Part shown: positions 1 to 22,651 of the stretch, piece by piece | How positions within the stretch are numbered: position 1 is the stretch's first letter | Layout of the letters: each line of letters begins with the position of its first letter | Source of the DNA: Cyanophora paradoxa CCMP329 | Lineage: Eukaryota; Plantae; Glaucophyta | Direction of reading: 5' to 3' | Length of the DNA stretch: 22,651 nucleotides | Assembly (NCBI GenBank): GCA_004431415.1 | Contig: QPMI01000155.1 | Location: 1 to 22,651, forward strand | Made by a program: the position numbers and the translations under genes | The notes under the pieces: generated by a model | Told to the model about the DNA's origin: nothing | What the model saw: only the letters and a program-made list of their open reading frames with translations | Databases searched by the model: none

Positions 1-3000
1 CGGAGACGACGGGCGGGGCCGCATCCCAACGGCACCCGACGTGCTCCCCGATCGCTCAGACTGGGCGAAGACGCAGAACTGGCGCTGAAGGAGACTTCCA
101 CGACGAGAGGTACGCCCTCGTCAAAGCACCCGCATGTGAAGGCCGACATCACGGACTGGGCGCACCGCCACCTGTACGAGACATCATCGGCGGGCCCAAG
201 GTGCCGGCGCGATTCCGGGTGGGGTACGGGCGGCGGAAGCACGGGAGGTGGGGTACAGGCACCGGGTGGGGTACAGGCACCGGGGGTGGGGGTACAGGCA
301 CGGGGGGCGGAGGGGCTCCAGTGGCACGCCCGTGGAGGGGGCGGGGTAGCAGCGGCTCGGGTGGCGGCGGCTCGGCGGAGAGAGCGGCGGAGGGGGTACG
401 CTCGTGCCGATCCTTGGTACAACAACGGAATCTTCGGCGCGGCCCTGATTGCAGCGTGCAAAGTACTACAGGGATCGGAAGGCGTACGAAAGGGACATTG
501 CAGAGCTGCAGAAAGATAACAAAACGATCGTTTACTCAGACGAGCAGGTGAGAATACTGGCAGAGGAGCTGAAGACAAGGGAGCGGCAATTTTAACGAAA
601 TGAGGACAGCGGCCGAGAAAAAGATAGCGGACGATTTGAAAGAGGCGAGCGATAGAATTGAGAAATCCCTGGAGGCCGAGGAGAAAGCCGAGATCCGGAA
701 GAGAGAGGCCGATAGGATCGTGGAAAACGCGATAAGGGAGGCAAAGGAGCAGGCAAGGACCGAGCTGGAGAAAACTGGACATGGAAATAGCAAACAAGGT
801 CAACATAGCAAACGAGGTCGAAGAGGGCACAAAGATGCTGGACGATGAGCGAAAGGCAGCGAGAGGAGCAAGCCAGAAAAGCAAAGGAGGATTTAAGGCA
901 GCTCGAACTGCGAGAACAGGAGAGGCAGAAGGCAGAGGGCTCGCATCCACCATACGATTCAACCTAGAGCAGCAAGTGAAAACGCTGACGGCCGAGCTGC
1001 AGAGGATAGGGACGGCTGTGCCAAGGGGCACAATGGAACGCAGCGACGAGCCAAGGCCCGATCCAAGGCCGGCCGCCGAGAGGCTGCCCTTCGCGCGGCT
1101 GGGTAGGAGCGACCAGGTGGAAGAGCTCATTGGCCTCACGCTCGAGGATCAGAGGCCCTCTTCGACGCGTTAGAGCAGCGGCGCAGGGCGGACGAGGAGG
1201 CAGCTGCCAAGACAGAAGAGGAACGACTGAAGGCAATGCAAACTGCATCAGACGAGGAATTTGCACGGCTGGAGGAGCCGAAGGTAGCGGAGCGTAAGCG
1301 ACGACTGGAGACGTTCAGGGGGGCGCAGATGGATTTTTACCGCTCGGAGCTCAAAAGACTGAAAGAAGGAAATGCATCGGGGGACAGGCTCCGCGCCATG
1401 GAAGAACATGCGCGACTTTAGCTACGTTATGGATCAGCTGACGGGAAGGGGTCAGAAAGACGCCGAAGAACTGAGGAGAAAGATGGCCGATGAGAAGTGG
1501 AAAAACTTTGAGCGTCAGGCTGTTCAGAGGCCCATCAGCGATGCCATCTGGATAGCATACGGCGACGTGGAGGAGATGCACAGAGAACTGCGGACGGAAG
1601 CGAGCCTGTGGCGGGGAGCCCTCGAATGGTCACTGTACCGGATACAAAAGGGAGTTTTGGCAGAGCTGCGAGCCAATCCGAAAACGGTGAGCGCGGGCGC
1701 ACAGAGCGCGTACCTCTCCATGGTCGATTACGTGGGCAAGCTGAGCAAATTTTGGGAAATGCGAAGAGCCATCATTCCAGCGGAGGGGCTCGCGCAGTAC
1801 GATGCCATGGTGCGCGATCTGGAGGCCTTCAAACGTGAGCACCCACCCGCCAAATACAAGATTCACATAGATACGACGGCATTCATGGGCGATCTAAGGA
1901 AGAGAGGAGACGAGGCCAAGAGTCAGATCGAGGAGCGCTACAGAAAGGCCCAAGCGGACAAGGAGTACGCAAACAGGGTGATCGAAGAGCGGAAGCAGCA
2001 AGCCAAGGAGAACGCGGCGAGACGCAACGCCGAGATAGAAGAGCAGAGGCGGAAGATCGCAGAGCGCAAGGCGGCAGAGGAAGAGGCAAGAAAGACCAAG
2101 GTAGAGACAGAGTACCAAGCATTGAAACGGGAGGCCAATCAAATATTAAAACGAAGGGGAAGGGCGTACGCCGATGAGGGCGCGGGCGTGGCTTGGCCAG
2201 CCCGACGACATCACACTCGCGGAGAGGGACGACGTTTCCGTGAGGAGATGCGCCCGGGCACGCCGCCTGCCCTCCGAGGGCGTGTTTCAGACGCTCGACA
2301 GGCGCGTGATGGGCGACTCGGACGTTATTTGCGCAACGCCCTCATGCCCTACGGCGACTGGAACCGCGCCACCGCCGACGCCCTCGCCGATTTCGACCTC
2401 GAGCGATTCACCACCAAAGAGCAGCGCGACGCGTACCTGGGGCGCCCGAGGCAAGGCGGCCCGGGGTGGCCAAGGAGGCCCTCAGCGCCGAGACGCTCTT
2501 CTCGCGGGGTACGGCGAACAACGACGGCATGTCTTTCGGGGCAGCCGATTTATTTCAGGGGGCGGGCATCGACTTGGTGGGCGCCGGGCTCGGGGGTACG
2601 GGCTCGCGGGCCATGCGGCGGGCGGGCGCGGCGGCGGCGGCCTTGGGCTGGCGACGGCGGGGCCTGCTCTCGGCCTACCAGGCGCTCTCGCAGGGCAAGA
2701 TAGGGGAGGCCGAGTTCTTCGATACGTTCCGCGATCAGATGATCATGACGGTCGGCTCTTTTGGCCTTCAGACGGGCATGTCGTCCGCCCTGAGCGCCCT
2801 CACGAAAATGAGGATCGGCACGGTGGGCGGACTTGGCCTGTCCATCCTCGCGGGCGCCATCGCGCAGGTGATCGTGGATATCATCAACGGGCGCAGCGCG
2901 GAAGAAATCGTGAAGAACTTTTTCAAGTACCCCGTCGACTGGGCGACCGACACCATACAGTTCATCGCGGAGCTCTCGCAACAGATCTACGACTGGGGCG

Positions 3001-3639
3001 TCGAGACGTGGGCGACGAGGCGAGCCAGCTGCGCAACCGAATTAATCGGCTGGAGGGCGAGCTGGGCTCCGGATTTTTGGGTGTGTACGACCCCTCGGAG
3101 GCGCGCGAAATGGCCTCGCTCTTGGCCCAGGAGCTGCGGTTAAACGAAATCAAGGAGCCGAAGGAGCTGCAGGCCTTCATTCGCGCGCTCGACAACAGCA
3201 TCAACGATTACCGTACCCCCAAGGACCAGAAGACCCTGCTCGAAATCGATCGCGCGACCGTGCTCTTCCTCTCCCAGCTCACCGTTAAAATGCAGGAGGG
3301 CTTCGGGTCGACTTCGCTCGCCCTGAGTCGACTTATGCGCGACCTGAAGCAGATGATAAAGGAGGAGACCAAGGGGCGGAAGCGCGTCTTAATTGCCGTC
3401 TACCAGGAGGGCCTCAACAGGATCAATCACATCGAAGCCCTAAGGCGCGAATTCGGCTCGGCCATCCGTCACTCGGGCGTCTCGTCGAACGGAGGGGCGC
3501 AGGTGGCCCGCCTGGCGGACGCCAACTCGCGCCTCGAGATTCCCGGGACCTTCCGCATGCAGGATTGGTGGGAGGCCGAGGCCTTCAGGAATTACGGGGC
3601 CTTCATAGACAACGGGATCAATTCGCAGAGCCCCAAGGC

Positions 3640-4110
3640 AAACTGGCTGGTACCCAAGGCCTACGTCGATAAATTGGTTGACAGGCCTGCAGCACCATAC
3701 ACCAAGAAGATCGCCAAAGGCATCGAGTACTGGGCGCCCGAGCCAGGCCAGCCCGTGTTTGCATCGCAGAACTACGAGTGGCACATGGCGCCGGGGGCGA
3801 GCCAGGCCGTGAGCACCGTGGGCGTTGCCGTGCCGCAGCTGGCGACGGTGGCACACACGGGGGCGTATGCAGATCTCAGCGGGAGGCCGACGATACCCGT
3901 GATACCAACAACGTGGGCGTGGGATAGCATCACGGGAAGCCGAGTACGTATCCCCACGCAGACCACCAGCACACCATCTCTCAGATCACGACTGACGGCC
4001 CCGGACTTGACGAACATCTCCGTGATTGACAACGTAACGGGCAAGCCACTTACCTTCCCCCCTCTACACACATCACAATGTGTACTGGATAATGTCATCG
4101 ACCGACCCAC
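3640..4110 (+). other. Phage-type tail-fibre repeat region
   Basis: LATVAHTGAYADLSGRPTIP matches the recurrent fibre motif LAxVAxSGxYxDLxxKPTIP. WDSITG(K)PSTYP and NVTGKPLTFPP match the W/xxITGKPxTFP fibre repeat. A KAYVD neck-like motif precedes them. Confidence 0.75.
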
Positions 4111-5242
4111 TCCTCCCACCCTCTACGCACAGTCAACAGAGTACTCGCTCACCAGCCACGGCACAGAAAGTGACATGGATGCGTACATAACGCACGGCAC
4201 GTCCTTCCACTCCTACGCTGCGTACAGAGTTTAACATCAATTCAACATACACGTGACGTTCAACATTACATTCGACAGGCGTACGACACTGGAGCGGACT
4301 GGGACCCAGCAACCCAACGCGTTATTAACGTAACCCCCTCGTTCGACATCAATCCGGCGCAGCACGGATGTCGATTCTTACGGGCCAACGTCACGGCGTG
4401 AGTCACACTGCTTTACAGTTAAGTGAGATTCCACCAGAATGACGGTCACGCCCACCCAAATTGTCCAGCTTTATCATTGACCGCATCGCAAGTGCTTATG
4501 TAATCGATTTTCTGATGCAATCCAAATGTCGTCGCTGTCCCTCTATTTACCTATGCTGCCAGCGTGAATCACAAGGGCGATCACACGATAAGAGACCACC
4601 CTCGAAACCAGGCCACCGAGGCCCCTACAACGCCACGCCGTCCCCTTTCCGAGGCCGACCTCGTCGCGGGCGAGCTCGCTGCGACAAGATGCGCACGCGG
4701 GAGGGCGGTCGCCGTGCCGGGGCGCGTGAGGACGCAGAGCTCACCGTCACGAACGGGCCTGGACGGAGCGGTACACCACGAATCAGTGACCTTAATGACT
4801 GTGAACGGGAGGGAATGCGGCTCTGTATGTGCAAGAGGCGGAGCAAACGTGTGGGGGCTTAGGGTGAGCGGGCTTCAAACTTGCGGGCATCGTTACATTG
4901 GACGATAAGCTGCAATTACCGGAACGCCACCGTACATAAATGGCGTGGTTCAGCTACTATAAAGTACAACGAAAACGATAGACTCCTTGTGGGACTCTTG
5001 GCGTTGGTGTTACAGTCTCTATTTACCTCGGCAATCGAAGGCCCTACTAATGGCCTAAGCATAGCAAACACTTCAATCGTTGATAGCGAAGCGTCAGCGT
5101 CGCTCGTCTATCCTTGAGAAACAACGCACCGAACGACTGCTGTGCGAACCGTCGCGTGCATCACGGTCGCTCATCGTCTCGACGCTCACGGGCGATGGAA
5201 ACCGAGCCGTTTATTCGATGCTCAAGATACCTGACAAACTCG

Positions 5243-5545
5243 TCGAGCGATACCGCCTGAAAGAAAATGTCGCGAGCATGTCGGGCATTCTCCTCTTCTG
5301 CTGCAGCTGAATCCCGTGTCGTTCACCTGGAAGAACACATCCTCGGGGTTCGAAAACGGATTACGGTCTCATCGCACAGGAAGTCCAAGGCGTCCTTCCG
5401 AGTCTCGTTTTCGAGAACGCGGATGGATTTCTCGGGTAAACTACGACAGCTCATTTCCCTGTCGTTGAAGCAATTCAGGAACTTTCACAAGAAGTCAAAC
5501 TCTCAAAGACCAGTAGCGCACTGGCGAGCTGATCGGAACAACTAG
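5243..5545 (+). other. Peptidase S74 / intramolecular chaperone domain of tail fibres (frameshifted)
   Basis: Reading across small indels gives SSD-RLKENV...LLQLNPVSFTWKN...DYGLIAQEVQGVLPSLV..NADGFL-VNYD-LI--VVEAIQELSQEV, the canonical SDxRLK / GxIAQEV / VxY / AIQEL pattern. Confidence 0.9.
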
Positions 5546-5551
5546 GAATAA

Positions 5552-7647
5552 CTACACCGCGAGTATCACAATTCGACCGTGCCACGTCGCTGAAGACGAG
5601 CCACCGTTGCCGCCCCTACCAATGCCTGCTGCGTAGTGAGCGTTCCGCTATTTCCTGCCACTGCCGACCCAGGATACACCGTAGCATCCTCAAGTTCCTA
5701 TGTAGCTCGAGCCACCGCCACTCCAAACATCTCTTGCTATTGGTTCTCTGACACTCCGCTCCTGCTGGACCCAGAGCCTCCACCGAAGTAACCACCACCA
5801 CCACCACCGAACCTGTAGCCGCTTGAATCAGGCCCAGTCTCTCCACCTTGGCGCAAAGTTCCCGGGTTGCTGGGCCTGGCCCCTGAGGCCACAACACCGG
5901 CTCCGCCAGCGGTTTGGGTGCCTCCTTGAGCCGGTATCTCTCCGGTTACTCCAACCAACCCAGCCGCACCACCGGTCAACCCCCCGCCTACTCCCCCGCC
6001 GCCATTCGAATCACATGTACCCCCACCTCCGGCCCCTGCAACAACCAAGTCGGTCCCTGCAACGCGCTGAATTGCAGAACGACCACCACCGGCGCCGTTT
6101 TTGTACTCCGATCGGACGCTATGGCTCCACCCTTCACCACCTCCAGACGGTAGCAGTGCAGTCCCCGATACACCCTTTGGGCCGCCGCATCCAACAACAA
6201 GGATGAGCGTCCCCCGAGGACACAGCCAATGTACCAACTACGCAAGCACCGCGCCTCCAGACCCCGTACCTGCCGTTCTCCGCCTCCACCCCGGCCGCCC
6301 ATACGATGACACGCACAGCCACAGTCCCCGTTGGTACTACGAAAGTCTGGTCGGCCCCGTGTAGGAGAATGTACCCAAAACAGGAGCGTTTGCAGTTGTT
6401 GCACTGGCAGACGAGGACTGAGGGCCTTCCTCGCCGATCTGGTTGACGCCCTTGATGGTGTAAGTGTAAGTGGTTCCGTAAACGGTCGTTGTGTCCGAAA
6501 AGGGGCTGCTCGTGTCGCTGGCAAGGAACACGCCACCCTGTAGATGTTGTAGGAACGGTGACGCCCGTCACCGGCACCGACCACTCGAGCACAACAGGCT
6601 GTGCTGCCCCGCCGCGGGGGTTGCAGTGAGCCCAGTGGGCGCCCCCGGGTCCGTGGTGACGTCGCCGCAATACTCTTCGGCCCCTCCCTCCCGTGTTCGT
6701 CGCGGAGATCTGGTACTCGTACCCTGTACCCCAGACGGTGGTCGTGTCGCTGTAGGAGTGGTCGCGGAGTCTGTGAGGTAGGCCCCGTCTCTGTAAATCT
6801 TGTATCCCGTCGCTCCGTGGACGCAGTCCAGCTGAGGCTGACAGGCTGCTGCTGGTCGTTGGGTGCTGATGCCGTCACGTTCGTGGGGCGTTTGGCATAG
6901 TCCAACCAGGAGCGGATCGGACTTGTCGTATTCGACACCGCCCACGATGCCGGCCACCTGGTAAGAGTATTCCGTGCCCACGTAAGAGCAGTGCTATCGT
7001 CAATGTACGAGGTAGACAGGGCACTGCTCGCAAATCCGATTGGCGTACCGTTCCTGTAAATTCGAATCGAGTCCGCGCCCTCCATGGCACCCAGTTGATT
7101 GTGACGACTATGGCGGGTTTCGGGAAGCCCGAAGACGCGGGGCCGCCCCGGCAATAAAATCGCCGTAGGTCTGGGCCGTGGCGGTCGTGAGCGTGGTGTA
7201 GGCTTCGATCTGCGGGCTGAAGCCGCCTATGCCTTGGAAGAGAATGTAATTGCTCATGGCACCCTCGTGGGTGTAGAGAAGCGACTGTGCGTAGGTTGTG
7301 GGCGGGGCTTTGCCATCAGAGCCCGTGCTGCTGCTGCCCTGTTCGCGAACCGCCGCCACGCGGTAGAGTCGCTGGGCCCCAAACTAAAGGGAGAGTCCGT
7401 GTAGGTGACGGTTGGCGCATTCACCGTGGCCACGAGATCCAGGGGCCGTTGATGCTGGTCGCCTGTACACCTTGTACTTGACGGCGTTGGTGACGCGACC
7501 CAGTTCAGCTGAAAGCCGTACGTACTGTTCCCGTTGTTGAGCACGGAGCCGATCGCACCTGGGGCTGCCCACAGTCAGCGAGATCGGCTCCACGCCATAC
7601 TGCGGAGCCTGCACCACCTGCTTTTTCACGAATACGAAGCGGGGCAT
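5552..7647 (-). pseudogene. Fibronectin type III repeat protein with C-terminal glycine-rich (ALK/LTK-like Gly-rich) domain; frameshifted
   Basis: AAAATG start at 7647 (MPRFVFVKK). About 4 FN3-like units (FQLNWVAS..AVKYKVYR; RPTNVTAS..VSLSWTAS..GATGYKIYRDG; GAPTGLTATP..VVLEWS..YNIYR; YTYTIKGVNQIGEEGPQSS). Then [56 protein letters not shown], with stop at 5552-5554. Confidence 0.8.
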
Positions 7648-7684
7648 TTTCCTCTACGATCCGAAAAAATATCTGCCCGGGTAA

Positions 7685-9188
7685 ATGACTTCCAACTGGT
7701 ACCAGACCCTCAGCGGCTCACTTGACGTTGGCAACAACACCAAGGATTTCGCACGCATACCCTCCGGCAGTTACGTCGACGTCTTTCTGCAGAATCCCGT
7801 CGTGATTCAGGTCGTTCAGAACGCCTACGCCACGCCAAGATTTATTCCTACCAGCTCTTCTTCGACCCTCTGAGCCTCAGCGCAGAGGTTATCGAGCTGC
7901 TGCACGAATCAGGACTCGTGAAAAAGGTGGCACCTGCCACGGCCACTGCCAACGTCTTGCGCTGTCTCGAGGTCAAGTTCAGGGAGACGGGTACGGCCCA
8001 CCGTGAACCGGTACCCCAGTTCTTCGAATCTTCGGGTACGGGAACTTACCAGATGAGGGGTACGCTCAAGGGCGACGTGCTCTTCACGAAATTCAATCCA
8101 AGTCCCGCGACCCTGGGGCCCTCTACACGGGCGGCAACCCACGCGGCTCGACTCTACCCGCTTCCCTTCACCTTTTTCAGGTTCCAGGTCTTCCCCTCTC
8201 CTACGCCGCCGACCAGCCCCACTTCAGCACGGGCGCCAGCCTCTGCGCGGAGCTGCGTGAGTGCTCGATTTCCTACGCGTACGGCACCGACGCTGACTCT
8301 GTGCCTGGGGCCCGCGTCATGAACATCGGTGGCGACATCACCCTCTTTCACGGATAATCTTTCTCATTTGAGGTCGCAAAATGCCGACCACCTCGGCCAC
8401 CATCGTGAAGACCGTGTCTGCCGGCTCGATCGTCCCCGATTCTACGGCAACGCTGGGAACGTGGCCAACGCAGGGACGGACAAGGTGGAGTGGGACGGAA
8501 ACTACGCCACCCGCTCACCGTGAGGGTCCAGAATCCCGTCATGTTGCGCGTCACCTCCAACGATTTCGAGAATCCCGCCTCCTGCTCCGTGTACGTGTAC
8601 TTTGACATCGACTCGGGCGTGAGCGCGGATGAGGCGGAGGCGCTCTGGCTCTCGGCCTCCTGAAAAGATAGAGCCCTCTGTGCCTGATCGGCCCGCCATT
8701 CGCGTGCTCGAACTCAAGTTCACCGCTAACACCGCCCTCACTCGCAAATTCGGGAATGGTGCGAATCCGAACATCAAAACGCATTTAGATGGCGCCCTCA
8801 TCGATGCCACACACAAGACCACGCAGGCCGTTCCCTTTGAGATGTACAACCTCTGGAAGATGACCGCAAAGGAGATGATGACGAATGCCACCACGGGCGG
8901 CGCCTCGGGTACCGATTATTCATACGGCGCCTCGAATCCCCGTACCCAGGTCTGGCCCCGGCTCCTCTTCACGAAATTCACTTTCAAATTGTACAACAAC
9001 ATCGCCGGAATGCCTACCTCTGGAATGGTCGTGGCTCTACCCTCATGGCCGAACTAATTGAGGCAGAGGCGGACTACACGACTGCGACTACCAACTCGAC
9101 AGCGCCAGGCGCCGGAGCCGAAGTTTACGTGGCCTGGGAAACGGTCGGTCGCGAGTACGACACCAAGATTCACACCACTAGCGTCTAG
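7685..9188 (+). pseudogene. Beta-rich structural protein with an internal duplication; candidate jelly-roll capsid or penton protein (~500 aa if joined); frameshifted
   Basis: Fragments 7685-7873, 7918-8322, 8629-9057 and a tail ending ..EVYVAWETVGREYDTKIHTTSV* (TAG 9186-9188). Thr/Val/Asn/Phe-rich. Repeated motifs LRCLEVKF / IRVLELKF and VLFTKF / LLFTKF. The capsid identity is inference only. Confidence 0.45.
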
Positions 9189-9224
9189 ACTGGCTAAGCT
9201 GCATTAGCACCTGTGTCGCCTCCA

Positions 9225-9541
9225 TCATCTCCCGAATCTCCTCGCTCTTCTCCTGTAAATTGGCGTACCCCTCCTCTTCTTGCGAATCTCCGACATTGAT
9301 GCCCAGCGCAGGTTCTCCCTCCTGTAGTCCAGCGGGTTGCCGTTGATGTGTTCCACGTAGCGTCCACGTGGCGACTTCCCGAGGATCAGCTGGGAGAGGT
9401 AGTGCTTGCGCCCTCCAAACGTCTTGCTCACCCTGTCCCTGTCACTCTCCAGGGAAACTCCAAGGCACTCGGGGGTACGTCCGAGTTGACCAGGACGTTG
9501 TAGGCGACGTCTTGCGAGTCGGTGCACCGGAGCAGGGCCAT
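9225..9541 (-). CDS. HNH endonuclease-like protein (HNH_3 type) with degenerate active-site residues; one apparent frameshift near 9445
   Basis: CAAAATG at 9541 ([21 protein letters not shown]). YLSQLILG...[28 protein letters not shown] resembles the phage/NCLDV pattern VDHINGxxLDNRxxNLRxxTxxEN. Confidence 0.8.
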
Positions 9542-9562
9542 TTTGCCCTAGGTTCAGAAAAA

Positions 9563-9694
9563 CCTGGGACTTGGGACTTGGGACTTGGGACTTGGGACTT
9601 GGGACTTGGGACTTGGGACTTGGGACTTGGGAAGAGTTGAAACCCAGGTCCCGGCCCAGACTTTCTCCAGGATCAGAAATTTGTCAGACAAGTC
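9563..9694 (+). repeat. G-rich heptamer array element, copy 1: CCTGGGAC(TTGGGAC)8TTGGGAAGAGTT plus conserved tail
   Basis: Read directly; the tail is similar to those of copies 2 and 3. Confidence 0.95.
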
Positions 9695-9713
9695 AGGTGA
9701 GTTTTTCTACCGA

Positions 9714-9787
9714 CTTTTTTACTCCTACCACTCCTCATACTCTTTTTTACTCGTAGTCTTTTTTACTCGTAGTCTTTTTTACTCGTA
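9714..9787 (+). repeat. T-tract tandem repeat CTTTTTT(T)ACTCGTAGT x3 plus one degenerate copy
   Basis: CTTTTTTACTC-type units at ~9714, 9742, 9758 and 9774. Confidence 0.85.
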
Positions 9788-10008
9788 TCCCATCTCGTAC
9801 CCTCCTTCTCTCGACATCTCACACGAAAACTCCTACCCTCTTCACATCCGTTTTCGGTTGCATACTCTCGTGAGCTTTCATGTCCAGTATCATGCTACAA
9901 GTCGTACACCAGTTCAGACTCTACCTCGCTTGAAATCTCACCTGGAATGTCACCAGAAACGTCATATGCAGATTTCCGTACCCTCTACATGTCTGCCCGG
10001 TGGTTAGG

Positions 10009-10127
10009 GACTTGGCGCGGCAAACTCTCAGATCCAGAGAGATTCTGGGCCCAGACCCTGAGTCTAACTCTTCCCAAGTCCCAAGTCCCAAGTCCCAAGT
10101 CCCAAGTCCCAAGTCCCAAGTCCCAGG
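10009..10127 (-). repeat. G-rich heptamer array element, copy 2 (6 TTGGGAC units), inverted relative to copy 1
   Basis: The minus strand reads CCTGGGAC(TTGGGAC)6TTGGGAAGAGTTAGACTCAGGGTCTGGGCCCAGAATCTCTCTGGATCTGAGAGTTTG. Confidence 0.95.
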
Positions 10128-10198
10128 ATCGCGCCAAGTCGTAACTGAATAGTCGGCCAATTTTTACAAGTATGTACAATGGAATGACGCAATACTAT

Positions 10199-11267
10199 TT
10201 ACAGCATCTCAAAGTCAGAGTCATCGTCATCGGAAACCAACTCAATGAGGCCCTCGGGCGCCGACTTAAGGGGAATGCGGGAAGGGACTGCGCTGCCTGC
10301 ACCAAGTCCTGCCGCTCGCGCTCGCGCTGCGCCGCCAAGGCCGCTGCCGCCTCTGCCTCGCGCTGCTGCTGAGCCTCGATGCGCGCCTTGAGCTCGGCCG
10401 CCTCCTTCTGCTTGCGCTCGGCGATCCGCGCCTTGTTGATCTGGTACTGGACAAGGCGCTCGTGGCGCCGCTTGCGCTCCAACTCCTTGCGGAGCTCGTT
10501 GCAGAGGACGCGCTTCTCAATGGTCTTGACGTGCTGAGTCAGGCGCTCGCTGTAGTGTGACGTCACGCGAGAACGGGCAATGCCGGCGCCGAGCTTCAAG
10601 TCCTTCTCGTGTGCCTTGGCGGGGTCCTTGACGCGCTCGGAGTTGTCGGTGAATGACGTAGTCTCCATGAACTTCTTCTTGACGATTGACTTGGTCTTGA
10701 TAATGCGGCGCTTGCGAGTCGGGTTTTCGTTGTCGCCTTCAGAGTCAGAAGACGACTCAGAGTCGTATGGAATCGGCACGTCAAAGTCGATGAAGTCGTT
10801 GATGTCAGACTCGACGTCAGAGGCCTCGGACTTGGCGTCATCGGCGGGCTCGGGGGCGGGCTCGGCGACGGGCTGAGGGGCAGATGACGACGATGACGGA
10901 GGGGGGTAATTCGTGAAGACTTGAGGGGGTAGGCCCAGGCGAGCGTCTCGGCAGCAGACTCGGCGAAAAGCTTGGGGTCGCCCCAGCCGTTGGCGGTCTT
11001 GACCCAGCCGGGGACGGGGGGCACGTCGACGGGGGGCTCGGGCTTGGGTTGCTTGGACTTGGATTTCTTGGCCTTGGACGTGAAGGCGGACTTGGGGAGA
11101 AGTTGCACTTCGGGGCCAGTGGCGCGTAAGATGGCATAATTGTAGATGTACCCCAGAGCGTCGGCGCGCTGCTCCATCTCAGGGGTAGCCCCTTGAGTGC
11201 CACCGGAGTTAGCCCACGTTGCTTGGACAAAGGCGAAGTCCTCGGCAAGCTCAGCGGGAATCGACAT
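10199..11267 (-). CDS. Orphan protein (~355 aa) with acidic/Pro-rich linker, basic NLS-like motif, coiled coil and acidic C-terminus; two apparent homopolymer frameshifts
   Basis: ATG 11267 (MSIPAELAEDF). ORFs 10596-11300 and 10195-10779 join by adding one base in the run at ~10925. Adding one base at ~10270 gives the ending LKSAPEGLIELVSDDDDSDFEML*. High-GC3 codon usage. Confidence 0.65.
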
Positions 11268-11326
11268 CTGCGCAAAGGGAAAAGAAATCAGCAAAGGCAA
11301 AACGTGAGGTGACTGTGAGGGCGGAC
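11268..11326 (-). other. Putative 59-nt spliceosomal intron directly upstream of the orphan gene ATG
   Basis: Minus strand GTCCGC...GCTGATTTCTTTTCCCTTTGCGCAG|ATG: a host-like donor, a CTGAT branch point, a pyrimidine tract and CAG. Confidence 0.6.
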
Positions 11327-11605
11327 TTGTGAAAATTCGGAGAGGCAGGGTTTCCTTGGGCTGAGAGAAGGCGGCGAACCCGTTTCAAGAGTGAGGCAAA
11401 ATGGCGGCGGACCGCGGTTTTGTGGGCGAATTTTTTCCTGGGCTAGTTCGCAACGGAAAACGTTGCCAACTGGCCTGAAAAAGCCAAATTTAGCGTTGGA
11501 CCGAAGACAGAAAAAGGAGCCGGCCTGACGGAAATTGCCCGAGTGCGTCCGCCGAAGGTCGAGTCTCGGATGGGGGGTACACCCTCAGGGGCCCCCCCTG
11601 GCCCC

Positions 11606-12076
11606 TCACCCTGGTAGTACCCTCTCAAAGGGATTTTCGAAGCCGTACAATTCTTGGTAAGTCTCGTAATCCGGGCTGTACCCCCTCACAATCTGCGGGA
11701 GCCCCATTGAAAGCCTCCGTCTATCCTCTCTCAATTCCCTGCGGAAAAGTCTACGGTCTTCTCGAGCTTCGCGCGTCACGCCAGCTGGGCGTGGTCTATG
11801 ATTGTTAGGGTTGTCGTAGCCTGGTCCCACCAGCCTCACGAAATTTTCGCGTATGGCCTCGGGGAGACTCTGGAAACGGTTCGTTGCGTGGAACTCGATC
11901 CATTCATTGAATCGACGCGGATATTGACGGATGACTTCAAGCACGCCCTGTGTGTTGGGCTCTGGTGTTATGTCGGGAATGTCATGTCCTGTGAGGTGCC
12001 AACGCCAGAACTCGCGCAGCCTCTCGAATGCCATATGCAACTCAAAGGGGAAATCGTAATAGAGATTGCCTGACAT
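11606..12076 (-). CDS. Orphan hypothetical protein, 156 aa
   Basis: AAAAATG at 12076 (MSGNLYYDFPFELHMAFERLREFWRWHL...), open to TGA at 11606-11608, with globular-protein composition. No family recognised. Confidence 0.65.
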   Translation of the reverse strand: MSGNLYYDFPFELHMAFERLREFWRWHLTGHDIPDITPEPNTQGVLEVIRQYPRRFNEWIEFHATNRFQSLPEAIRENFVRLVGPGYDNPNNHRPRPAGVTREAREDRRLFRRELREDRRRLSMGLPQIVRGYSPDYETYQELYGFENPFERVLPG

Positions 12077-12102
12077 TTTTCTCCCCCTCCGAAAATTTCC
12101 CC

Positions 12103-12201
12103 GTTTTGAGTCCAGACTCTGATTCCAACTCTTCCCAAGTCCCAAGTCCCAAGTCCCAAGTCCCAAGTCCCAAGTCCCAAGTCCCAAGTCCCAGGTCCCA
12201 T
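12103..12201 (-). repeat. G-rich heptamer array element, copy 3 (7 TTGGGAC units), same orientation as copy 2
   Basis: The minus strand reads ATGGGACCTGGGAC(TTGGGAC)7TTGGGAAGAGTTGGAATCAGAGTCTGGACTCAAAAC. Confidence 0.95.
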
Positions 12202-12326
12202 TTTTCTCCCATTTCAGTCCGAGATTTTGCCCAAGTCCAAATCCGGGCCCGGGATTCGAACCCTCGTTTTCGGTCGATTTCACGCGTGAAAAACGCACTT
12301 TTCGGCCTTTTCCGATTTTTCCTTTC

Positions 12327-12436
12327 TCGCGATCGCAGAAATGCCCCCGATCTCGAAATCGCGATCGAAAAGGGTCGCGATCGGGAGAAAGTCGCGATCA
12401 CCAGGGTCGCGATCGGGTCGCGATCGCCGCGATCGC
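12327..12436 (+). repeat. Cluster of co-oriented (T)CGCGATC(G) motifs with ~16-bp periodicity; candidate subterminal repeats
   Basis: TCGCGATC at 12327, 12359, 12375, 12392, 12407 and 12418; CGCGATCGC at 12428. Confidence 0.85.
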
Positions 12437-12667
12437 CAGCCTCGGAGGGGGTACCCCCACAGCTGTTGCGGCGGTTATAAGAACCTCCGCAATCCAAGCG
12501 TCACTTCCGAGTCTCGAGCTCTCGGAGTTGCCTTTTCGCGTTTGGCCCATTGATGGCCCTCATATATAGTGCTATTGGGTCTAGAGAGCCATACTAGCTT
12601 GAAATCTCACGAACAGAGAGCGAAGCGGAAGGGGAAGCAGAGCCCTCGGAGGGCTAGAGCTCGGCGG

Positions 12668-15600
12668 CTAGAAGAGGTCGGGCTGGCCGGTGGAGGAGAG
12701 GAGGCGGCCCCACATGCGGCCGCGGGGGTCCACGGGGCTCGGCTGCTGCAGGTCCCCCAGCGGCAGCATCAGCCCCTTCTGGTTCACCTGGCGCGCGGCA
12801 TCCCGGGGTGACCTCGAGGGAGGCGGCGAGGCGCGCGCGCTCGGCGTTTATGCACGGCACGCTCGCCGTCGTGCTCTAGCACAGGCTTAAGGCCCGCGTG
12901 GGACGTTTGTGATCACCTGGCCCACCGCGAAGCCCGTGTACCCCGCCATCGCCCCGTGCACCGCCTGCTCGGCTTCAGCGTCGAGGGCGAGGGGGGCGCG
13001 GGGGCGGGGCGGGGCGCGCGTTGTGGGCCATGTGCGTGCAGAGCGTCGAGTCGGCTGCGTTCGCCGGCACAGACCGGATCATGTACGTCGGCTGCGGAAG
13101 GGAGGAAGGGACAGAATCAAGGAAGAAAGGGAAGGGAAGGGCAGGAAGGAGGGTACGGACGTCGATGTACTTGACGTTGGCCTCCTCCTTCTTCGCCTTG
13201 AAGTGCCTCGCGATCTCGTCCCGCAGGAACTGGGCGGGAAGGCGGGTTAGGCGGGGCGGGGTGGGGTCCGGGGGAAGGGGGAGGGGCGCGGGGGGAGGAC
13301 GCGCGGCGCCGATGTCGGGGCGGACGCCGGCGGCGTCGGGGGGGAGGAAGTCCTGGCCCGCCCCCTCTGCCGCCCGCCCGCCCCGCGCGAGGTCAGGCCC
13401 CCGCCGAGGGAGGACCCCCGCAGTGCCCCGGATATCGATCCCTGGCTCTAGCCGCCCCGGCCCGCCCGGCCCGCCCCGGCGCGGCGTCTCGGCGGACCGG
13501 CGAGGACGAGGGTGCAGTGGCCGCGGGTGCGGAGGCGGTGCTCGACGAAGGCGAGGAGCGGCGCCACGCGGAACTTCACCTCCGGCACCAGCGTGCACTG
13601 CCGGGGGGGGGCGGGGGGGGGGGCGGGGGGGGGGGGGGGGGCGGGGGGCGGGGGGGGGGGGGGGTGTTAGGCGCCGCGCAGGGCGGGGCGGCGGGCGAGG
13701 AGAGGCGAGGGGAGCTGGGCGAGGCCTAGCACGCGAATCTAGCAGGAGAAGAGCGCAAGGGGCGGCGAGGAAGGACGGGGCGGGGCGGGGCGGGGCGGTG
13801 GAGCCGGCGGGGTGGAGCGAGGGGAGCGGAGCCCATGGCGAAGCTCACGGGGGCCCGGCCCATGCGTATCCTAGGTCTGGCAGGAGAGGTAGGACGGGGC
13901 GGGGCGGGGCGGGGGGGAGGCGGGGGGCGAGGAGGAAAGGGCGCACGTTGACGTCGCGGGAGGCGAGCGTCGCGTGCGTCGCGATGTGCCCTGGCCCCTC
14001 AGCCCTCAGAGCGGGCGCGCGCAAGCGTGCTCGAGGGTGCTGGAGGGCGGACCGGCGTTGCGGCCCATGAGCTTGACGATGGCGACGCCGTTCGTCGCGC
14101 AGTGCGACTCCACGTGCGCCGACGCGATCGCCCGCGCCGCCTGCCCGCCCCCGCCCCTCCTCAGCGCGGGGCCGATGGAGAGGGCCCGCCAGAACCCGGC
14201 CGGAAGCTCAAGGGGCGCTGGAGCGACGGCGGGGCTAAAGATCCGGGTCGAGAGGGGCGGGCGGGGGCGGGCCTCCTCGACGGCGGTGTCGAAGCCGAAG
14301 GACTGGTCGATGACGGGGATGTCGTTGTCCACCGTCTTCGGCACCCCCACCACCGCGATCTGCGGGGCGAGGCGTGAGGCCGAGGAGGCGGGGAGGAGGA
14401 GGAGAGGGCGGGGGGGCCTTGAGGTGGCGGGCGCGGAACTCGTCGGCGAGGACCTGCGCGCTCCGCAGCGTCTCCTTGCCCCCGATCAGGTACACCTGCC
14501 CGAGTGCGGCATGGGTCTCGGGCGCGGGGGCGGGGGCGGGCGGGAGAAATGAAGGGAGGAGCGGAGGCCCGGGGGAACCTGGTTGAAGCCGTTGCGGAGG
14601 ATCGACTCGATGACCTTCTCCCGGTCGAAGCCGCCCCGAGCGCACCCCAGCACCGACCCGCCCTGAAGCGAGAGGGCGGGTTGGGCGGGAAGAGGGGAGG
14701 TTAGACGAATGGGGAGGGGTACGCGCCTGCTGGTGGATGCGGGCGACCGTCCGGGGCTCCAGCCGCTGCAGCTTTTCCTTCGGCTCGTCTGCGCACGTAC
14801 CCCCCCGCCGGAAGGTCGGGGGGGGGGGGGGGTGGCGAAGGCGCGAAGGTGTGGAAAGAAGGGGCGCACAGAATCCCTTCCATCCGAAGGGGATGCCGTA
14901 GATCTGAGGGGGTACGGGAAATCAGGAGGCGTAAGAAAAGAGCGGGGGTACGGGATGAAAGGCAGACCTCCTGGACTCCGTAGAAGAACGACAAGCACAT
15001 CACGATCTCGCGGATCACCGTGTTCAGGCCGGGGCAGAGGCCTGGAAGAGGGGGTACAGTGAGCGGCTGGAGGAGAGGGGTACGGTGTTCGGGGGGCGCG
15101 CCGCCGATGGTGACGATGGCTGCCTTGACGTCCTTGGGGTGGTAGCAGATCTCGCGGCGCGGGCCCGCCCGCAAGTAGAACGGGCCCGCCTCCCGCACCT
15201 CCCCGCTCTCTGGGGGTACGTCAACCGGGGGGCGGGGGGGGGGGGGGGGGCAGAAGCGCGAACCCGGGCGGGAGTACTTCTCGATGCCGCCGTGGAAGAC
15301 AATGCTGCCCAGGGCGTAGCTGTTTGGCTGCGGGCCCCCGGGGTTGAACTCGGGAGGAGGGAGAGCGGTGGGGGGTACACGCACGCCGACGAACTGGCGG
15401 TCGTTGTCGAAGGCGTCCTCCTCGAAGGCGGGTACGATGGTCTGGAAGTCCTTAAGGGCCGGGGAGGGGTAGTGCCCGATCTCCTGCGCTCCGGCCGGTT
15501 GGCCGCGCGCGTTCAGCTCTAGCCACCCAAACTCACAGCCACCGCTTGGCCCGGACCTTTCGGAAGTCGTGGATATGGGTTACGGGCCGGAGGACGGGCT

Positions 15601-16185
15601 TCATTAGGATGCTTCCGTACATCGCCCGGATCCGCTTCTTGCTCTCTGCGTGCCCCGGGCGGCCTTGCGTCAGTGTAGACGTAGGGGCCCGGGCCGGGCG
15701 GGAGGAGGGCTGAGCGACGGCGGGGCGTCACTGGACAAGCTAACAAAGAGAGCTAAAGAGCGCTTTTGCCCGCCTGGAGCGCGGCTCTGGGCTGGAACTA
15801 GACGGGCGGAGGTCTAGATCTGCGGCTCGGGCGGAGTTCCGGATCCAGGACTCGGCGCGGTCGCCCGGCCGGGATTATCGGGCGATCGCTGCACCCGACC
15901 TATCGCCGGCGCGTATGACTGCCCCCGTGACGCGAGCCAAGGCGCGGCGGCCGCGTTGACGTGCTCTACCCTATCCGAACGAGAGCCGGCATACGCGGGC
16001 TTCCGCGCACCGTCGGCGCCTCCGATATCGTCTGCACTGCTCTGATTGCGTTTGAGGGGAGGCCGCGGGCTACCGGTACTGTTCTTGCGGGCTGGATCGG
16101 TCGGGTTGGGCGCCGGCGCGGCCGGCACCGGAGCCCCCTCGGGCACGGTAGACATCGCCGCAGCTTTCGGCGCCTTCGCAGACAT
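12668..16185 (-). CDS. PFK: 6-phosphofructokinase family protein (plant/group-X ATP-PFK type), multi-exon (about 20 exons), with atypical GGKET motif
   Basis: Spliced motifs: [16 protein letters not shown]|[64 protein letters not shown]|[21 protein letters not shown], and last exon [16 protein letters not shown] (TAG 12668-12670). The start at 16185 and the first exons are less certain. Confidence 0.93.
13603..13664 (+). repeat. Poly-G tract (poly-C in sense) in a PFK intron
   Basis: About 60 nt, nearly all G. Confidence 0.9.
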
Positions 16186-16268
16186 GCTGAGATGCGCTGT
16201 ACCGGGCTTCGCAAGCGCCCAAGACAGGGCTACAGTCACCGAAGGGGGGGGGAGAAGGGGGGGGAGAA

Positions 16269-18187
16269 ATGACGCTGTTCTCGCTGCCGGTGGCGCCCAC
16301 GCGCGCCGCGGCGGTTCCGATCGGCTTCAAGAGCTTCCATGGGCGTGCCCTGCACGTCCCCGTCGCACGCCGGCCCCGATCGGCTGGCCGAACAGCGAGC
16401 TCGAGCACGACGGCCTGCCGCCAGCGGCAGGCGTGGGACGACCTCGCCGACGCAGTGGGAAACGTTCCGTCGGGGAAGCGGGCACGCGACGCGGCGAGCG
16501 CACCTGCGGGATCGCTGCGGAGGCAGCTCGCAGACGGCGCGCCTCGAGCCCCCGCCGCGCGGGGCGCGCTGACGCGTACGCGGCGGCAGGCGGCTTCCCG
16601 CTGCTGGTGGAGGCGCTGCCGCCGCGGGGCACGTCGGAGCTGGACGGCTGGGCGGCCTCCTTCGCCGCCCTCGCCGGGCGCCTCCCCGGCCGCATCGCCG
16701 CCTTCTCCGTCCCCACCAGGCCCGCCCGCCCCCCGCTCGCTCGCTCGCCCCCGCTCGGCCGCGGCCGCGGCTGAGGCGCGCGGGCGGGCCGCAGCCGTTC
16801 GGGAACGGGAACCGGGCGGGGTCGCTGGCGTCGGCGGCGCTGCTGGAGCGGCGCACCGGGGTGCCCGTGCTGCCCCACTTCACCTGCCGCGACCGCGACG
16901 CCGCCGCCGTCCAGGCCCGCCCCGCCCCGCCCCGCCCCGCCCCGCCCCGCCCCGTCCCCGGGCCCGACGCGGGGCGGGCGGGGCGGGACGCAGGGCGACC
17001 TGCTCGGCGCCTGCGCCCTCGGCGTCCGCCAGGTCCTCGCCGGTGCCTGTACCCCCTCCATTCCTTCCCCCCCCTCCCGGCGAGCCGCCGTCGCGTGCAG
17101 TGACGGGCGACCCGGCGCCCCACTCGCCCCACCAACACCCTCACATCCCCGCCTCCCCCGACGTCCGTACCCCCCGGCGCCCCCCTGCCCTCTTTAATCC
17201 CCCCGGCAGGCGGCGGCAGCCCCGGAGCACATCGACCCCGCCTTCCGCCGCGCCGTCTTCAACTTCGGTATCCCCCCCCCCTGCCCATCCTTGTACCCCC
17301 GCCCCGCCCCCCGCCGCCCTTACGCCCCGGGCCCGCAGACAGCTTCAAGCTCATCAGCCTGATGGCCCGCCTGCGGGACGAGGGGTACCCCGCTCTCGCC
17401 CCCACCCCCCACCGCTCGGCCCGACCCGGGCGCGCCGCCCAGGCTGGGCTTCGACGGGACGCCGGCGGCTGTACCCCCCGAGCTGCTGGTCGGGGCGGCG
17501 GCGAACCCCTGCGGGCCGCCCTCCCCCGAGGACCAGGCCCGCCGCACCGCCGCGAAGGTGCCTGTACCCCCCTCGGCCACTAACGAACCATCGGGCCGCT
17601 CACTTGGCTCAGATCGCGGCGGGGGCGGACTTCTTCGCGACGCAGCCGGTGCTGGACGCGGCGGCCTTCGCGGCCTTCCACGCCGCCCTCCGCGACCTCG
17701 GCGTCCCCGAGCGCTCCTACTTCATGCCCGCACCCCCGCCCGGGCCCGCCCGCCCGCGCCCTCAAGCGCCTCTCAACCTCCCACGCGCAGCGCGGGGGTG
17801 CCGATCTGCACGAGCGTCGCCAAGACGCGCAACATGCTGCAGGCGAGCCGATGGCCCCCCGGCCCCGCCCAGCCTTCCTTCCCTTAGCGCCGGGGCAGGC
17901 CTGGACGGCGTCGCCCCCCGGGGCGGAGTGGGCGTGGGCGCGGGAGGTGGAGGACCGGGCGGAGTTCCGCCGCCGCGGCCGCGCCCTCGCCGTCCAGCAG
18001 GCCCGCCCCCTCCTCCCTCGTGCACTCCGCCCCGCCCGGCCCGACGCCGTCCCCCGGGCAGGCGCGGCTGCTGCGGGAGGCGTTCGGGGCGGACGGGGTG
18101 CTGCTGTACCCCCTGTGCGCGGGGGAGGCGGACCTGCTCGAGAGCGTCGAGGAGGTCGCCGCCGCCCTTTCTGCCCCCGCGAGCTGA
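16269..18187 (+). CDS. metF: Methylenetetrahydrofolate reductase (bacterial MetF-type catalytic domain only), ~12 exons, with transit-peptide-like N-terminal extension
   Basis: Spliced motifs: GFPLLVEALPPRG, GSLASAALL, PHFTCRDRD, GDLLGACALGVRQVLA|VTGDP, RAVFNF|DSFKLI, VGAAANP, K|IAAGADFFATQPVLD, ending ..ALSAPAS* (TGA 18185-18187). One base appears to be missing in a C-run near 16712. Confidence 0.88.
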
Positions 18188-18661
18188 GGGTTCCACGCCC
18201 CACGCTCTCTCCTGGGAACGCGGCCCGCACCAGCCCGGCCATATCCCCCCCCCCCTCCCCCCCTCCCTCCCCCCTCCTCTCTCCCCGCAGGGCCTCCCCA
18301 AACATCCTTCTCCCCCCTCCCCCCCCCCCCCCCCCCCCCCCCACTCCCCACTCCCCACTCCGCCACGAGATGGCTGCAATTGCAACCAAATCAGTTCTCG
18401 TAATTTTCATTCGCATGTTCATGCTCGATTGTTTTTGTCAGCCTGACTCCAGGCCAGATTGATGACTAGTACTATTGGAATCAGGCTTGATTGCTGGCTG
18501 GAATCCAGCCTGCATAATCTGATCATGATAGAAATCCGCCGGCATCGCCGCCCCCGCCCCGCTGCCTGATCGCCCCGGGGCCCCGCGAGCGAACGCCCCA
18601 TGGCCATGCTCCCTCTCGAGCTCCCTCTCGGGCACCCGGTCCACCCCAGCCCGGCCCGGCG

Positions 18662-18697
<36 letters not shown>

Positions 18698-19398
18698 CCC
18701 CTACACCCCCTGGGCCAAACATGATCTAGATCTCGTGATTCAAAATCGCATGTTCATATTCGATTTTCTCCAATTGGGGGCCCGGCGGGGCCGACGTCGC
18801 GCGCACGTGTTTAGAGTAACTTTAGGCCGATATCGATCGCGGGCGCTAGCACGCGCACGGGCACAACGGCGTTGCATGTTGCGTCGAGCTTGCAAATGAA
18901 TTAGTTGCGGGGGATATGGGGATTGCGCAGGCCTAGGTATATATCGATATCGATTAGTTCCGAATTTGAATAATTTTTATAAACCAAGGAACAAGCTTAA
19001 GCATATAACTAAGCTTGAGCAGTTTATGAAAATCAGCTGAACGCTGCGGGGCCGGGCGGATTGCGGATTAGATCTATATTGTGAGCCATTGGCAATTGGA
19101 TCTAGAGTTTCAAAACCAACGACGAATATTTTGATTTCGGCCACAGAATTCGAAGAACGTCTCTTGCACTTCCAGGGGGGGAATCGTGATCATGAGAAAG
19201 CTACAGAGCCATCATGCATATGAGCATGATCCACAATTAATAAAAACAGCCATGGCGTGCGAGAAGAATATTCGGAATCGAGGACATGAAAAATATTCGA
19301 GGGCATGCGAAACAAACGATGCACAACTGGCGTACAAATCGTACATATACGCATACGCATGCACACATGAAACAAATTTCCCCCTCGGCTCCTCTCGG

Positions 19399-22300
19399 TC
19401 AACCCTGGGATCCGGATCCAGAGAACGATCCGCCAGAGGACGTGATTTTGATCTGGTGGCAGAGATTGTAGAAGGAAGCGAGCCTGCCCAAGTGGATTGA
19501 TTGCACGTTTGAGAGGCGCCATGGCCAGCAATGCAGAATGAGAATAATCAACATTTAGTCCTGCTGACCAATTTTTCGAGGCGTCGTCGATTACTTTCTT
19601 GAAGAAATCGTTGACCTTGGAATTAAAAATCGATGCAAAACGTGAGCCCGAATCCCCAGCGCAAACCCCTCGGACGAGCAGGCACCTGCTCTTCAGTCTC
19701 TAGCTTGAGATGCATGCCCAGGCGCTGCCTTGTGTCTTGCGTGGCCTCAGGCCCGTACATCTGAGGGCGCGGCGCGGGGTGAGCGTGCCGCTGGAGCGCG
19801 CGTCTGGCGGCAGGGAAGGCGTTTGGGGACCAGCATGCAGAGGTGGAGGAGGAGGTTGGCGTTCTTGCGGAGGACGGCGAAGGCCTTGCAGCCCAGCTCC
19901 ACGAAGCTGCAGAGGGGCCGGGGCGGCTCCCGATCAGGGGAAGACGCCATTGCGAACAGAAATGAAACATGGCGCACATCTCGACCAGGTTCTCCTCTTT
20001 CCCGTCTCCTTCAAGAACATACCTGAAGCTAATTTGAGAACAAAGTAGCAGCAGCAGCATGCGCAGGCACAATTCGCAAGAACTCAAAGAACGATTGCGA
20101 GCGCACGCATACTCGGGGGTGAAGAGGAACGGTGTCGTTTCTCGCGGAATAATCCCAAAAATCTTCCTTACTTGTCTGAGCCGCGAGATCAGGCCATCAA
20201 GCCAAAACAAAAATACATCGCATAGATCGGGATAAAGGCCTGCTCTATAGCTAGTCCTGATCCTCGGATGCATATAGTCATTGATAGTTCAAGCCATTCT
20301 CCGGTCCTGGTTAGCTGAAGCTTAAGGCTTGTCCGGGTGGCCACCCACTGGGCCATCATGTGGAATTGGGCATTGCGATCGATATCGCTGCTCACCCTTG
20401 GTACCGCCCGAAATCGATGTCTGCAGGCGGAATCGCGATCCGAGTCGGCGGTCGATCGCGAGTGGGAGTGAGCTGCAAGGATGTGCGGGGCGGGGCGCAC
20501 GGAACATGCGGCCGTCGTCGAAGAGCATCACGTTGTCGTTGTGCCGGTCGCACAGCCCCAGCACGTACGTCCTGAATCCCGAGCATGGTTCGGGTGATAT
20601 GGGCCGGGGCGGCGGGGCGCGGCGGGGCGCACGCGACGCAGTATCCGGCGTAGGTGGTCGCGAACTTCTTCCTCGCCTCCAGGAAAGCTTCCCCTGCGCC
20701 CGCGCCCGTGCCCACGACTGCGATTAGCTGAGAGAAGCTTGAGACGGCCCGCGCGTGCATCCGTCATCCGCCCGCATGTCAGCCAGCGCGCGCGCGCGCG
20801 CACCTGTCGTGTTCTTTTCTTGGAGCCAGTTGTAGATAGCCTGAAAGTTGGTTCCATAGTTAGCGCCGAGGCAGAGGTCGCCGACCGGCCGGGGCGAGGA
20901 GAGGACCGTCTTTTTGCGGACAATCCCCTTCACGCCCGAAAGGCGCTCAATCTCGCCCTGCGCAGTGCGCACGCGTCGGCGCCGCGCATCCCGGGCCGGC
21001 CGAGGGAGCGATCATGGCCAAATTAAACTCGCGCGAAAGCGAAAGCGGACGCACGATCGTCTTCGCATTCTTGACCACCTCGATCACGCCCGATCCGCGG
21101 CCCGTCGAGAAGCACTAGAGGCAGCGTTCGAATTAGAGACTCAACACGTGCACACGATCGAGTGGATAATGGGATGGGATGGACAACCTTGTAGGGGGTT
21201 AGCATCAGGAACAACTTCTCCTTGCCCTCCTTCTCTTCATTCCACAGCTGCGCTCGCGTCGGATGAATCAAAGCTGCAGGGAGCTGAAGGCGGCACTACA
21301 AAATGCATCCGGGCTTACCCTGTCCATGACACAGAGCATTTTCAGGAACATTTCGTCGGCCCGCAGATCCTGCGAGCCAGCGCGATGAGCCCGAGGCACC
21401 CAACGTGCACATGCGGAATTCAGGTCCGCAGGAAGGGCGGACCTGCCCAGCCTTGAAGATCACGCGGATGTGCGTCTCCTCTTTCGTGTCCTCGCGGAAG
21501 GGCTTGTGAGTCTTGAGCTGCGGTTTCGATAGATAGAAGTCAGGCAGGCGTCGACACGAAAACACGTGCACGGCCACGGGCGTCGCTGATCATGATCATG
21601 AGGCAACGCGCCTTGTTTATCCACTTGTGCACGGCATGCTTCGCGCTCGCTTTCGTGCTCGGCCATGGCCATGTTCTCATCAAGTCGTACACCCTGGCGG
21701 CCGCTTTGGATTCCTCCGGATCCTCCGCAGCCGCGGCCGACGTCCGAGTCGGCGCGGAGACGACGATGGGCCCGACGGACCCCGACTCGGTCCTGGCGAT
21801 CGGCGCCGGCCGCGGCGTGCGGCTGCCGGCGGCGGCCGCCGGCTCCGCAACGCGCTGCCCGGTGAACGTGAGCTCGTACGGGCACTGCAAAAAGCGTCGA
21901 AGTCAGCCGCTCGGTGTCTGCGACGCGCACGGCCACCGCGGACCTTGCCCGAGTTGTACACCTTGTACGTACCCTCTGGCCCTGGCTTCGACAAGTCTAC
22001 TCCGCTGATCTGACCAGGATAATAACGTCCTTCATTGCCCTTTCGTGCGCATCGGGAGGTTTGGATGCGGACCTGGAAGTAGGGGTCGACGGGGACGGTG
22101 AAGGTCTTCGGGACGCGGCCGCTCCCCTGCGCCTCCTCCACGAGCTGCCTCAGGACCGCCGGCAGGTCGCTCCCGTCTGCCTTCTTCTTCTTCACGATGA
22201 GCCTGCCGCAGAACCGTGAGAAGCGCCCGAGCTCGTCCCAACTGCAAGGGCGCAGGCGGCGGAACGCGGCGCACTTCTTGGCGATCTCGCCGGCGAGCTC

Positions 22301-22651
22301 CACGAACGCCACCTGGTCGTCGAGGAACGAGTGCCCCGCCTTCCTGCAGCAAAGCTGGAACTGGTCCAACAGGACCTGCGTTCGAGTCCGCCTGAGTTCA
22401 CTTCGACTTGCGGGCACATGTATGGAAAGGCGTATCGCATGGCCACGGGTACCTTGCAGCGATGCCCCCATGCACTCTCTTCGCCCTCGGCCCACTGTAC
22501 AGCACGCGCACGGCTCACGATCGCGAGAGCGCCGGGAAGATGTGCCGGGGGATCGATCCGGAGCACCTTGAGGGCCCAGAAGACGGAAGTGCCGACGAGG
22601 TGCGGGTTGCGGAGGCCCCGCCAGAAGAGGAGCCGCACGAGGGGCCCGTCG
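19399..22651 (-). CDS. Phosphatidylinositol 3-kinase catalytic subunit (class I/II-like), 3' part, multi-exon; 5' end outside window
   Basis: Helical-domain end (LFWRGLRNPHLVGTSVFWALK), RVIFK|..DLRADEMFLKML, LTPYKV, GVIEVVKNAKTI, FATTYAGYCVA|TYVLGLCDRHNDNVMLFDDGRMF|HIDFG, RETTPFLFTPE, CKAFAVLRKNANLLL, and last exon LASFYNLCHQIK..SQG* (TGA 19399-19401). Confidence 0.92.

Follow-up and report, generated by a model that had tools for sequence, protein, structure and literature searches.

A dispersed multi-copy endogenous virus, probably Polinton-like, beside a phosphofructokinase gene of Cyanophora paradoxa

Contig QPMI01000155.1 of the glaucophyte alga Cyanophora paradoxa CCMP329, analyzed here as a single window of 22,651 nucleotides, joins viral and host DNA. 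Bases 1–12568, the element part of the window with its right end placed at 12568 by analysis of read contigs, are probably the right arm of an endogenous Polinton-like virus (PLV) that this alga carries in multiple dispersed copies, with frameshifts that are likely long-read errors; the assignment to PLVs rests on right-arm genes, those for capsid, ATPase, polymerase, and integrase lying outside the window. The block of genes that fills the first 12.5 kb or so is intron-free and has a GC content of 58.7%, whereas the DNA to its right has 73.4% (12569–18700; 67.6% over 12569–22651) and holds GC-rich, intron-rich host genes. PLVs typically sit in protist genomes as many scattered insertions marked by a GC step; seen here are homologues on 50 contigs, several different flanks, and the change from 58.7% to 73.4%. 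A first-pass annotation had taken the block for the right arm of a DNA virus integrated into a eukaryotic chromosome, and this is supported by host labels, the 50 contigs, synteny, a terminus shared among many flanks, and high depth.

Copies in the host genome and gene layout

Proteins near-identical to those of the element are C. paradoxa gene models on 50 contigs (large fiber, paralogous pair, and the gene upstream of the window combined), which answers the proposal in the first-pass annotation to look for further copies. Counted by first-listed gene names only, the paralogous pair has 41 named models on 34 contigs and the large fiber 27 on 24. Leftward extension, also proposed there, did recover an upstream gene, a 158-aa orphan just left of the window with 15 models on 15 contigs (15 of its 17 members listed), and reached no further. 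Fiber and pair lie two to four gene numbers apart on all 14 contigs that carry both. For two queries from the window and for the upstream gene, the nearest homologues are gene models of C. paradoxa, and a query from 8623–9054 retrieved five proteins: three C. paradoxa models (one 99% identical) and two environmental. Sequence words of 5000–14500 are present at 0.67–0.69 in 14 of the 24 listed sequencing runs, all 24 of which bear one organism label; no RNA run is listed among those that contain these words.

Contigs from four runs (three DNA, one guessed to be RNA) were compared with 12215–13230 only. At 12568, 4, 4, and 3 contigs of the three DNA runs exit into flanks that disagree (agreement 0.56–0.63), and a few further contigs exit at 12559, 12569, and 12574. 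Because contigs leave at 12568 into many flanks, we take the element to end there and to be inserted at many sites. Single-contig depth of the terminal region against the host contig is 2900 versus 48.5, 1202 versus 16.3, and 2900 versus 66.1, giving ratios of about 60, 74, and 44, which are not true copy numbers and in which a terminal inverted repeat would count double. The element had earlier been drawn to about 12500, some 150 bp from the phosphofructokinase (PFK) gene; in this contig it does adjoin PFK, with its end at 12568 and 100 bp between that end and the stop codon (12668–12670). The features of the window are as follows.

1–4503, + strand: large fiber protein with coiled-coil body, hydrophobic segment, phage-tail-type repeats, and variable C-terminal tip (P0084 tiling; PHROG; tip variation)
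4526–5532 (start approximate), + strand: second fiber gene with C-terminal Peptidase_S74 chaperone, frameshifted (PF13884; PHROG tail fiber)
5737–7647, − strand: frameshifted protein with FN3-like repeats and, C-terminally, a Gly-rich domain (PF12810; weak FN3 matches)
7685–8357, + strand: paralogue A, 226 aa, weak lean to an OB fold (homologous to B)
8381–9188, + strand: paralogue B, 270 aa (tiled by P0010; homologous to A)
9178–9541 (end approximate), − strand: HNH endonuclease, frameshifted (PF13392, HNH_3, E 2.4e-7; PHROG HNH)
9565–9632, − strand: heptamer array 1, with TCCCAAG repeated 9.7 times inside a module of about 90 bp, G-quadruplex-type on the G strand
9668–10036, no strand: AT-richer spacer from which arrays 1 and 2 diverge; contains 2.9 copies of a 16-bp repeat and may be an origin or control region
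10072–10125, + strand: heptamer array 2, 7.7 units
10195–11267, − strand: frameshifted orphan whose middle is Pro/acidic and whose C-terminal part is coiled-coil (no family at cut-off)
11606–12076, − strand: 156-aa orphan, open frame (no family match)
12133–12200, + strand: heptamer array 3, 9.7 units
12215–12568, no strand: terminal region in high copy, with its end at 12568; may be a terminal inverted repeat (depth and differing loose ends in all three DNA runs)
12668–15580 (5′ end approximate), − strand: host PFK gene with GC-rich introns, flank rather than element (PF00365, E 6.4e-12; last exon and stop)

The first-pass annotation had named several of these. Its HNH protein is supported by the HNH_3 match; its two orphans are found, neither with a match at the curated cut-off in profile searches; its duplicated open reading frame (ORF) proves to be a pair of true paralogues (hhalign probability 98, E 2.9e-13, 28% identity); and its repeated cis elements are the three heptamer arrays, with 24 motif matches against 0.05 expected. 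The S74-chaperoned tail fiber is present, frameshifted, as one of two fiber genes rather than the only one. In the FN3/Gly-rich protein the Gly-rich domain stands (PF12810, E 3.9e-7), and the FN3 signal is weak (FN3con E 0.59; CbhB stretch E 0.0017).

Some further observations concern the terminal region and the flank. Positions 12290–12435 hold 6 of the window's 16 TCGCGA palindromes, and for a hairpin at 12460–12575 none of 200 shuffles folds as well (z −2.8). A near single-copy contig of about 8 kb in runs X1, X12, and X3 carries only 12508–12568, the last 61 bp, with 5 mismatches, between unrelated sequence on both sides and with TA runs at the joins; this piece is a terminal remnant standing alone at another place in the genome. 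To the right of PFK lie an MTHFR-like host gene (about 16200–18190, + strand; weak PF02219 match, E 0.42) and a PI3-kinase-like host gene (about 19400–22651, − strand), the latter called by eye from exon translations.

Frameshifts and the phosphofructokinase junction

Comparison with sister proteins shows how the reading frames of this copy are broken. Of the 270 residues of P0010, 266 tile exactly on the window, with four breaks, all deletions, and five bases missing; 209 of the 226 residues of P0043 tile; and for the large fiber P0084, 1399 of 1466 tile exactly, the breaks comprising 33 steps of −1 to −6, 4 of +1, 3 of 0, and one compensating −21/+17 pair. There are about 50 frame-changing breaks over the three tiled genes; from one break to the next, the residues are those of intact sisters. 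From deletions without substitutions we infer long-read consensus error, and on this sequence comparison the frameshifts are likely errors of assembly. Neutral decay does not normally give deletion-rich breaks with identical residues between them. The published C. paradoxa assembly is PacBio-based (PMC6704402), and false frameshifts of this type are reported in endogenous viral elements (section 7 of PMC10120064).

The breaks might instead be genuine, in which case the family would be real and this copy truly decayed or non-autonomous, moving, if at all, with helper copies. The sheer number of breaks fits such decay, as do several sister gene models that are also short or broken. Deletions far exceed substitutions, however, the intervening residues match intact sisters, and about one-third of the window's words are absent from every short-read run, all of which makes a decayed copy distinctly unlikely.

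Annotation has been affected as well. Public gene models P0001, P0006, P0009, P0015, P0055, and P0056 fuse adjacent viral ORFs or put introns in open frames, and P0006 leaves out about 170 nt that are translated in the 226-aa models. The element distorts the proteome of the species through faulty gene models.

The insertion beside PFK calls for separate scrutiny. No contig covers 12569–12700 in any of the three DNA runs, the PFK-side junction being neither bridged nor refuted, and among the loose ends listed none matches the window flank beyond 12574; in the guessed-RNA run only host exons are covered, at 90–95% identity. A real element placed beside PFK by an assembler mis-join inside a repeat would agree with these gaps. 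Yet the position of the join, 12568, is precisely the natural end of the family, at which other copies too enter host DNA, and the uncovered stretch looks technical because it includes host PFK codons, the last of the gene, which must exist. We consider a mis-join highly unlikely.

Virus class and fiber genes

PLV-type elements are already on record for this host. Table S4 of PMC10120064 gives C. paradoxa 366 major capsid protein (MCP) genes, which fall into one cluster of 272 and one of 94, each labeled "new," and Table S6 of PMC12220804 tabulates 156 glaucophyte elements, with PF04665 in 139, rve in 85, PF03175 in 49, HNH_3 (PF13392) in 40, S74 (PF13884) in 37, and tyrosine recombinase in none. 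One C. paradoxa PLV fiber is named in PMC12220804 as having phage-tail repeats and a lectin tip, and section 13 of that paper treats S74 fibers as typical of PLVs. The undescribed lineage suggested by the first-pass annotation is therefore mostly set aside, such elements having been counted in both papers; a gene-level description was not found in their available portions. The window is consistent with this tabulated set, with membership not proven: none of six example MCP contigs is among the 50 element contigs. Related loci were absent from the viral contig and metagenome contig collections searched.

A phage-like fiber with an S74 chaperone, a PLV trait that is common and not diagnostic, is present in the element. 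The S74 piece at 5344–5436 reaches 21.6 bits against PF13884 (cut-off 22; E 2.7e-4), another piece reaches 12.4 bits, and the same gene has PHROG tail-fiber matches. Intact sisters of the large fiber are 1,400–1,680 aa long, the window starting near residue 180, and residues 1378–1440 of sister P0047 match a PHROG minor tail protein (E 1.4e-9). Nine large-fiber copies, selected because their C-termini are intact, share a body segment of 97 aa at 97–100% identity, whereas their last 110 residues form five types that share 15–50%, one with a weak Gp53-like_C match (E 0.008). These alignments make exchange of receptor-binding tips between copies likely; literature searches found no report of five swappable fiber-tip types.

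By analogy with its family, the left arm would carry genes for a double-jelly-roll capsid protein, for an ATPase of the A32 type, for either a polymerase or a primase-helicase, and probably for an rve integrase, given the rve and tyrosine recombinase counts among the 156 glaucophyte elements. The element would insert into the host genome and be inherited and, on reactivation, would yield particles whose vertex fibers bind cell-surface glycans. S74 would fold the fiber trimer and then release itself by self-cleavage, and the receptor would vary as copies exchange their tip domains.

Another class of small DNA virus (mriyavirus-like or otherwise related to Nucleocytoviricota) or part of an endogenous giant virus is very unlikely indeed: an integrating element of 15–40 kb accounts well for syntenic copies by the dozen that share one sharp end, S74 fibers are typical of PLVs, and the main text of PMC10962738 does not name Cyanophora. 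That DNA of a phage or bacterium was fused to an algal contig, as the phage-tail and HNH profile matches might suggest, is scarcely credible: the many host flanks largely refute it, homologues sit on 50 algal contigs, 5000–7700 has no blastn match in 50,697 phage records, and the 34 ORF pieces scanned (the left arm lying outside) include no terminase, portal, or head match.

The paralogous pair, the heptamer arrays, and known relatives

The duplicated ORFs had been thought capsid-like, with a fold search proposed as a check. The capsid-like reading, under which the pair was the candidate for a PLV single-jelly-roll minor capsid protein, was not supported: Foldseek gave no match at E ≤ 0.001 for the AlphaFold model of the 226-aa protein, and no jelly-roll appears among its 50 listed structural matches, a result that at pLDDT 58 does not exclude one. 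The 270-aa model has pLDDT 32, and the fold search with it was uninformative. The weak match list of the 226-aa model is topped by gp2.5, Cdc13, and proteins that bind single-stranded DNA (SSBs), and its predicted strand order is compatible with a T7 gp2.5-type OB fold. An acidic C-terminal tail is a feature of T7 gp2.5-type SSBs, and direct reading finds none in P0010 or P0035. A PDB sequence search with the pair profile gave 0 matches; an Atlas search with P0010 returned unnamed phage proteins (0.87–0.88) and the Bbp16 cluster (0.84), unconfirmed leads only, and with P0035 no match. Relatives of the pair outside Cyanophora are limited to four environmental proteins; related viruses are suggested to exist outside this culture. 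P0003, P0004, and P0036, on short contigs, are 44–63% identical to the pair.

Every array lies within a module of about 90 bp whose flanks are common to the modules. Arrays 1 and 2 diverge from the 369-bp spacer, arrays 1 and 3 are complementary (94% over 86 nt), and the G strand fits the canonical G-quadruplex pattern. An identical heptamer array in viral contig L001 (10000–10065) was rejected as chance; by our own reading L001 carries terminase-like and portal-like phage ORFs, has many unrelated 7-mer repeats, and gives no tblastx match to the window. The arrays may, we infer, serve as origin or protein-binding sites. That the pair are OB-fold SSBs for strand-displacement replication, with the arrays in such a role, is a possibility that the models raise and that we advance tentatively. 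Unlikely, in our estimate, is a bolder version in which the lineage would have its own telomere-like system, the two OB-fold paralogues binding the G strand of the three arrays as Cdc13/POT1 do on telomeres, for an internal origin or displaced-strand protection, combined with a library of at least five interchangeable fiber tips. The telomere of the glaucophyte Glaucocystis is reported to be TTAGGG (PMC3622300). Literature searches, with subscription journals outside their coverage, found no report of a Cyanophora telomere sequence, of a PLV with telomere-like or G-quadruplex repeats, or of a PLV with an SSB or OB fold.

An element of this class is expected in a host already known for hundreds of them. 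Intact sister copies in a cultured model alga open reactivation, and a glaucophyte virus, to testing, and the five tip types on near-identical fiber bodies make it practicable to study how receptors diversify within one host genome. The element's gene models also inflate the "orphan" proteome of a species key to plastid evolution. If the pair do prove to be array-binding OB proteins, they would form a replication or end-protection device for which the literature searches found no PLV report.

Among known systems, HHV-6 and Marek's disease virus carry telomeric repeat arrays, and the likeness lies in perfect G-rich tandem arrays near the end of a viral genome; here, in contrast, the heptamer is unlike TTAGGG and the copy adjoins a housekeeping gene, not a chromosome end. 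The predicted strand order of the 226-aa protein is compatible with OB-fold SSBs of the T7 gp2.5 type, which phages, gamadviruses, and Nucleocytoviricota carry (PMC10962738). PLVs of cryptophytes, rhizarians, and haptophytes, including Gezel-14T, share modular fibers of more than 1,000 aa beside or fused to Peptidase_S74 (section 13 of PMC12220804), whereas laminin G, collagen, and BppL have no match in the element described here. The PLV-type elements of C. paradoxa are likened as a set, this copy being matched to no listed element or MCP cluster. Although the paralogous pair, heptamer arrays, and tip exchange are not described in the available portions of PMC10120064 and PMC12220804, those elements share with this one the host species, many dispersed copies, an S74 fiber, HNH_3, a phage-tail-repeat fiber (named, with a lectin-type tip, for one C. 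paradoxa PLV), GC content below that of the host, and a frameshifted assembly.

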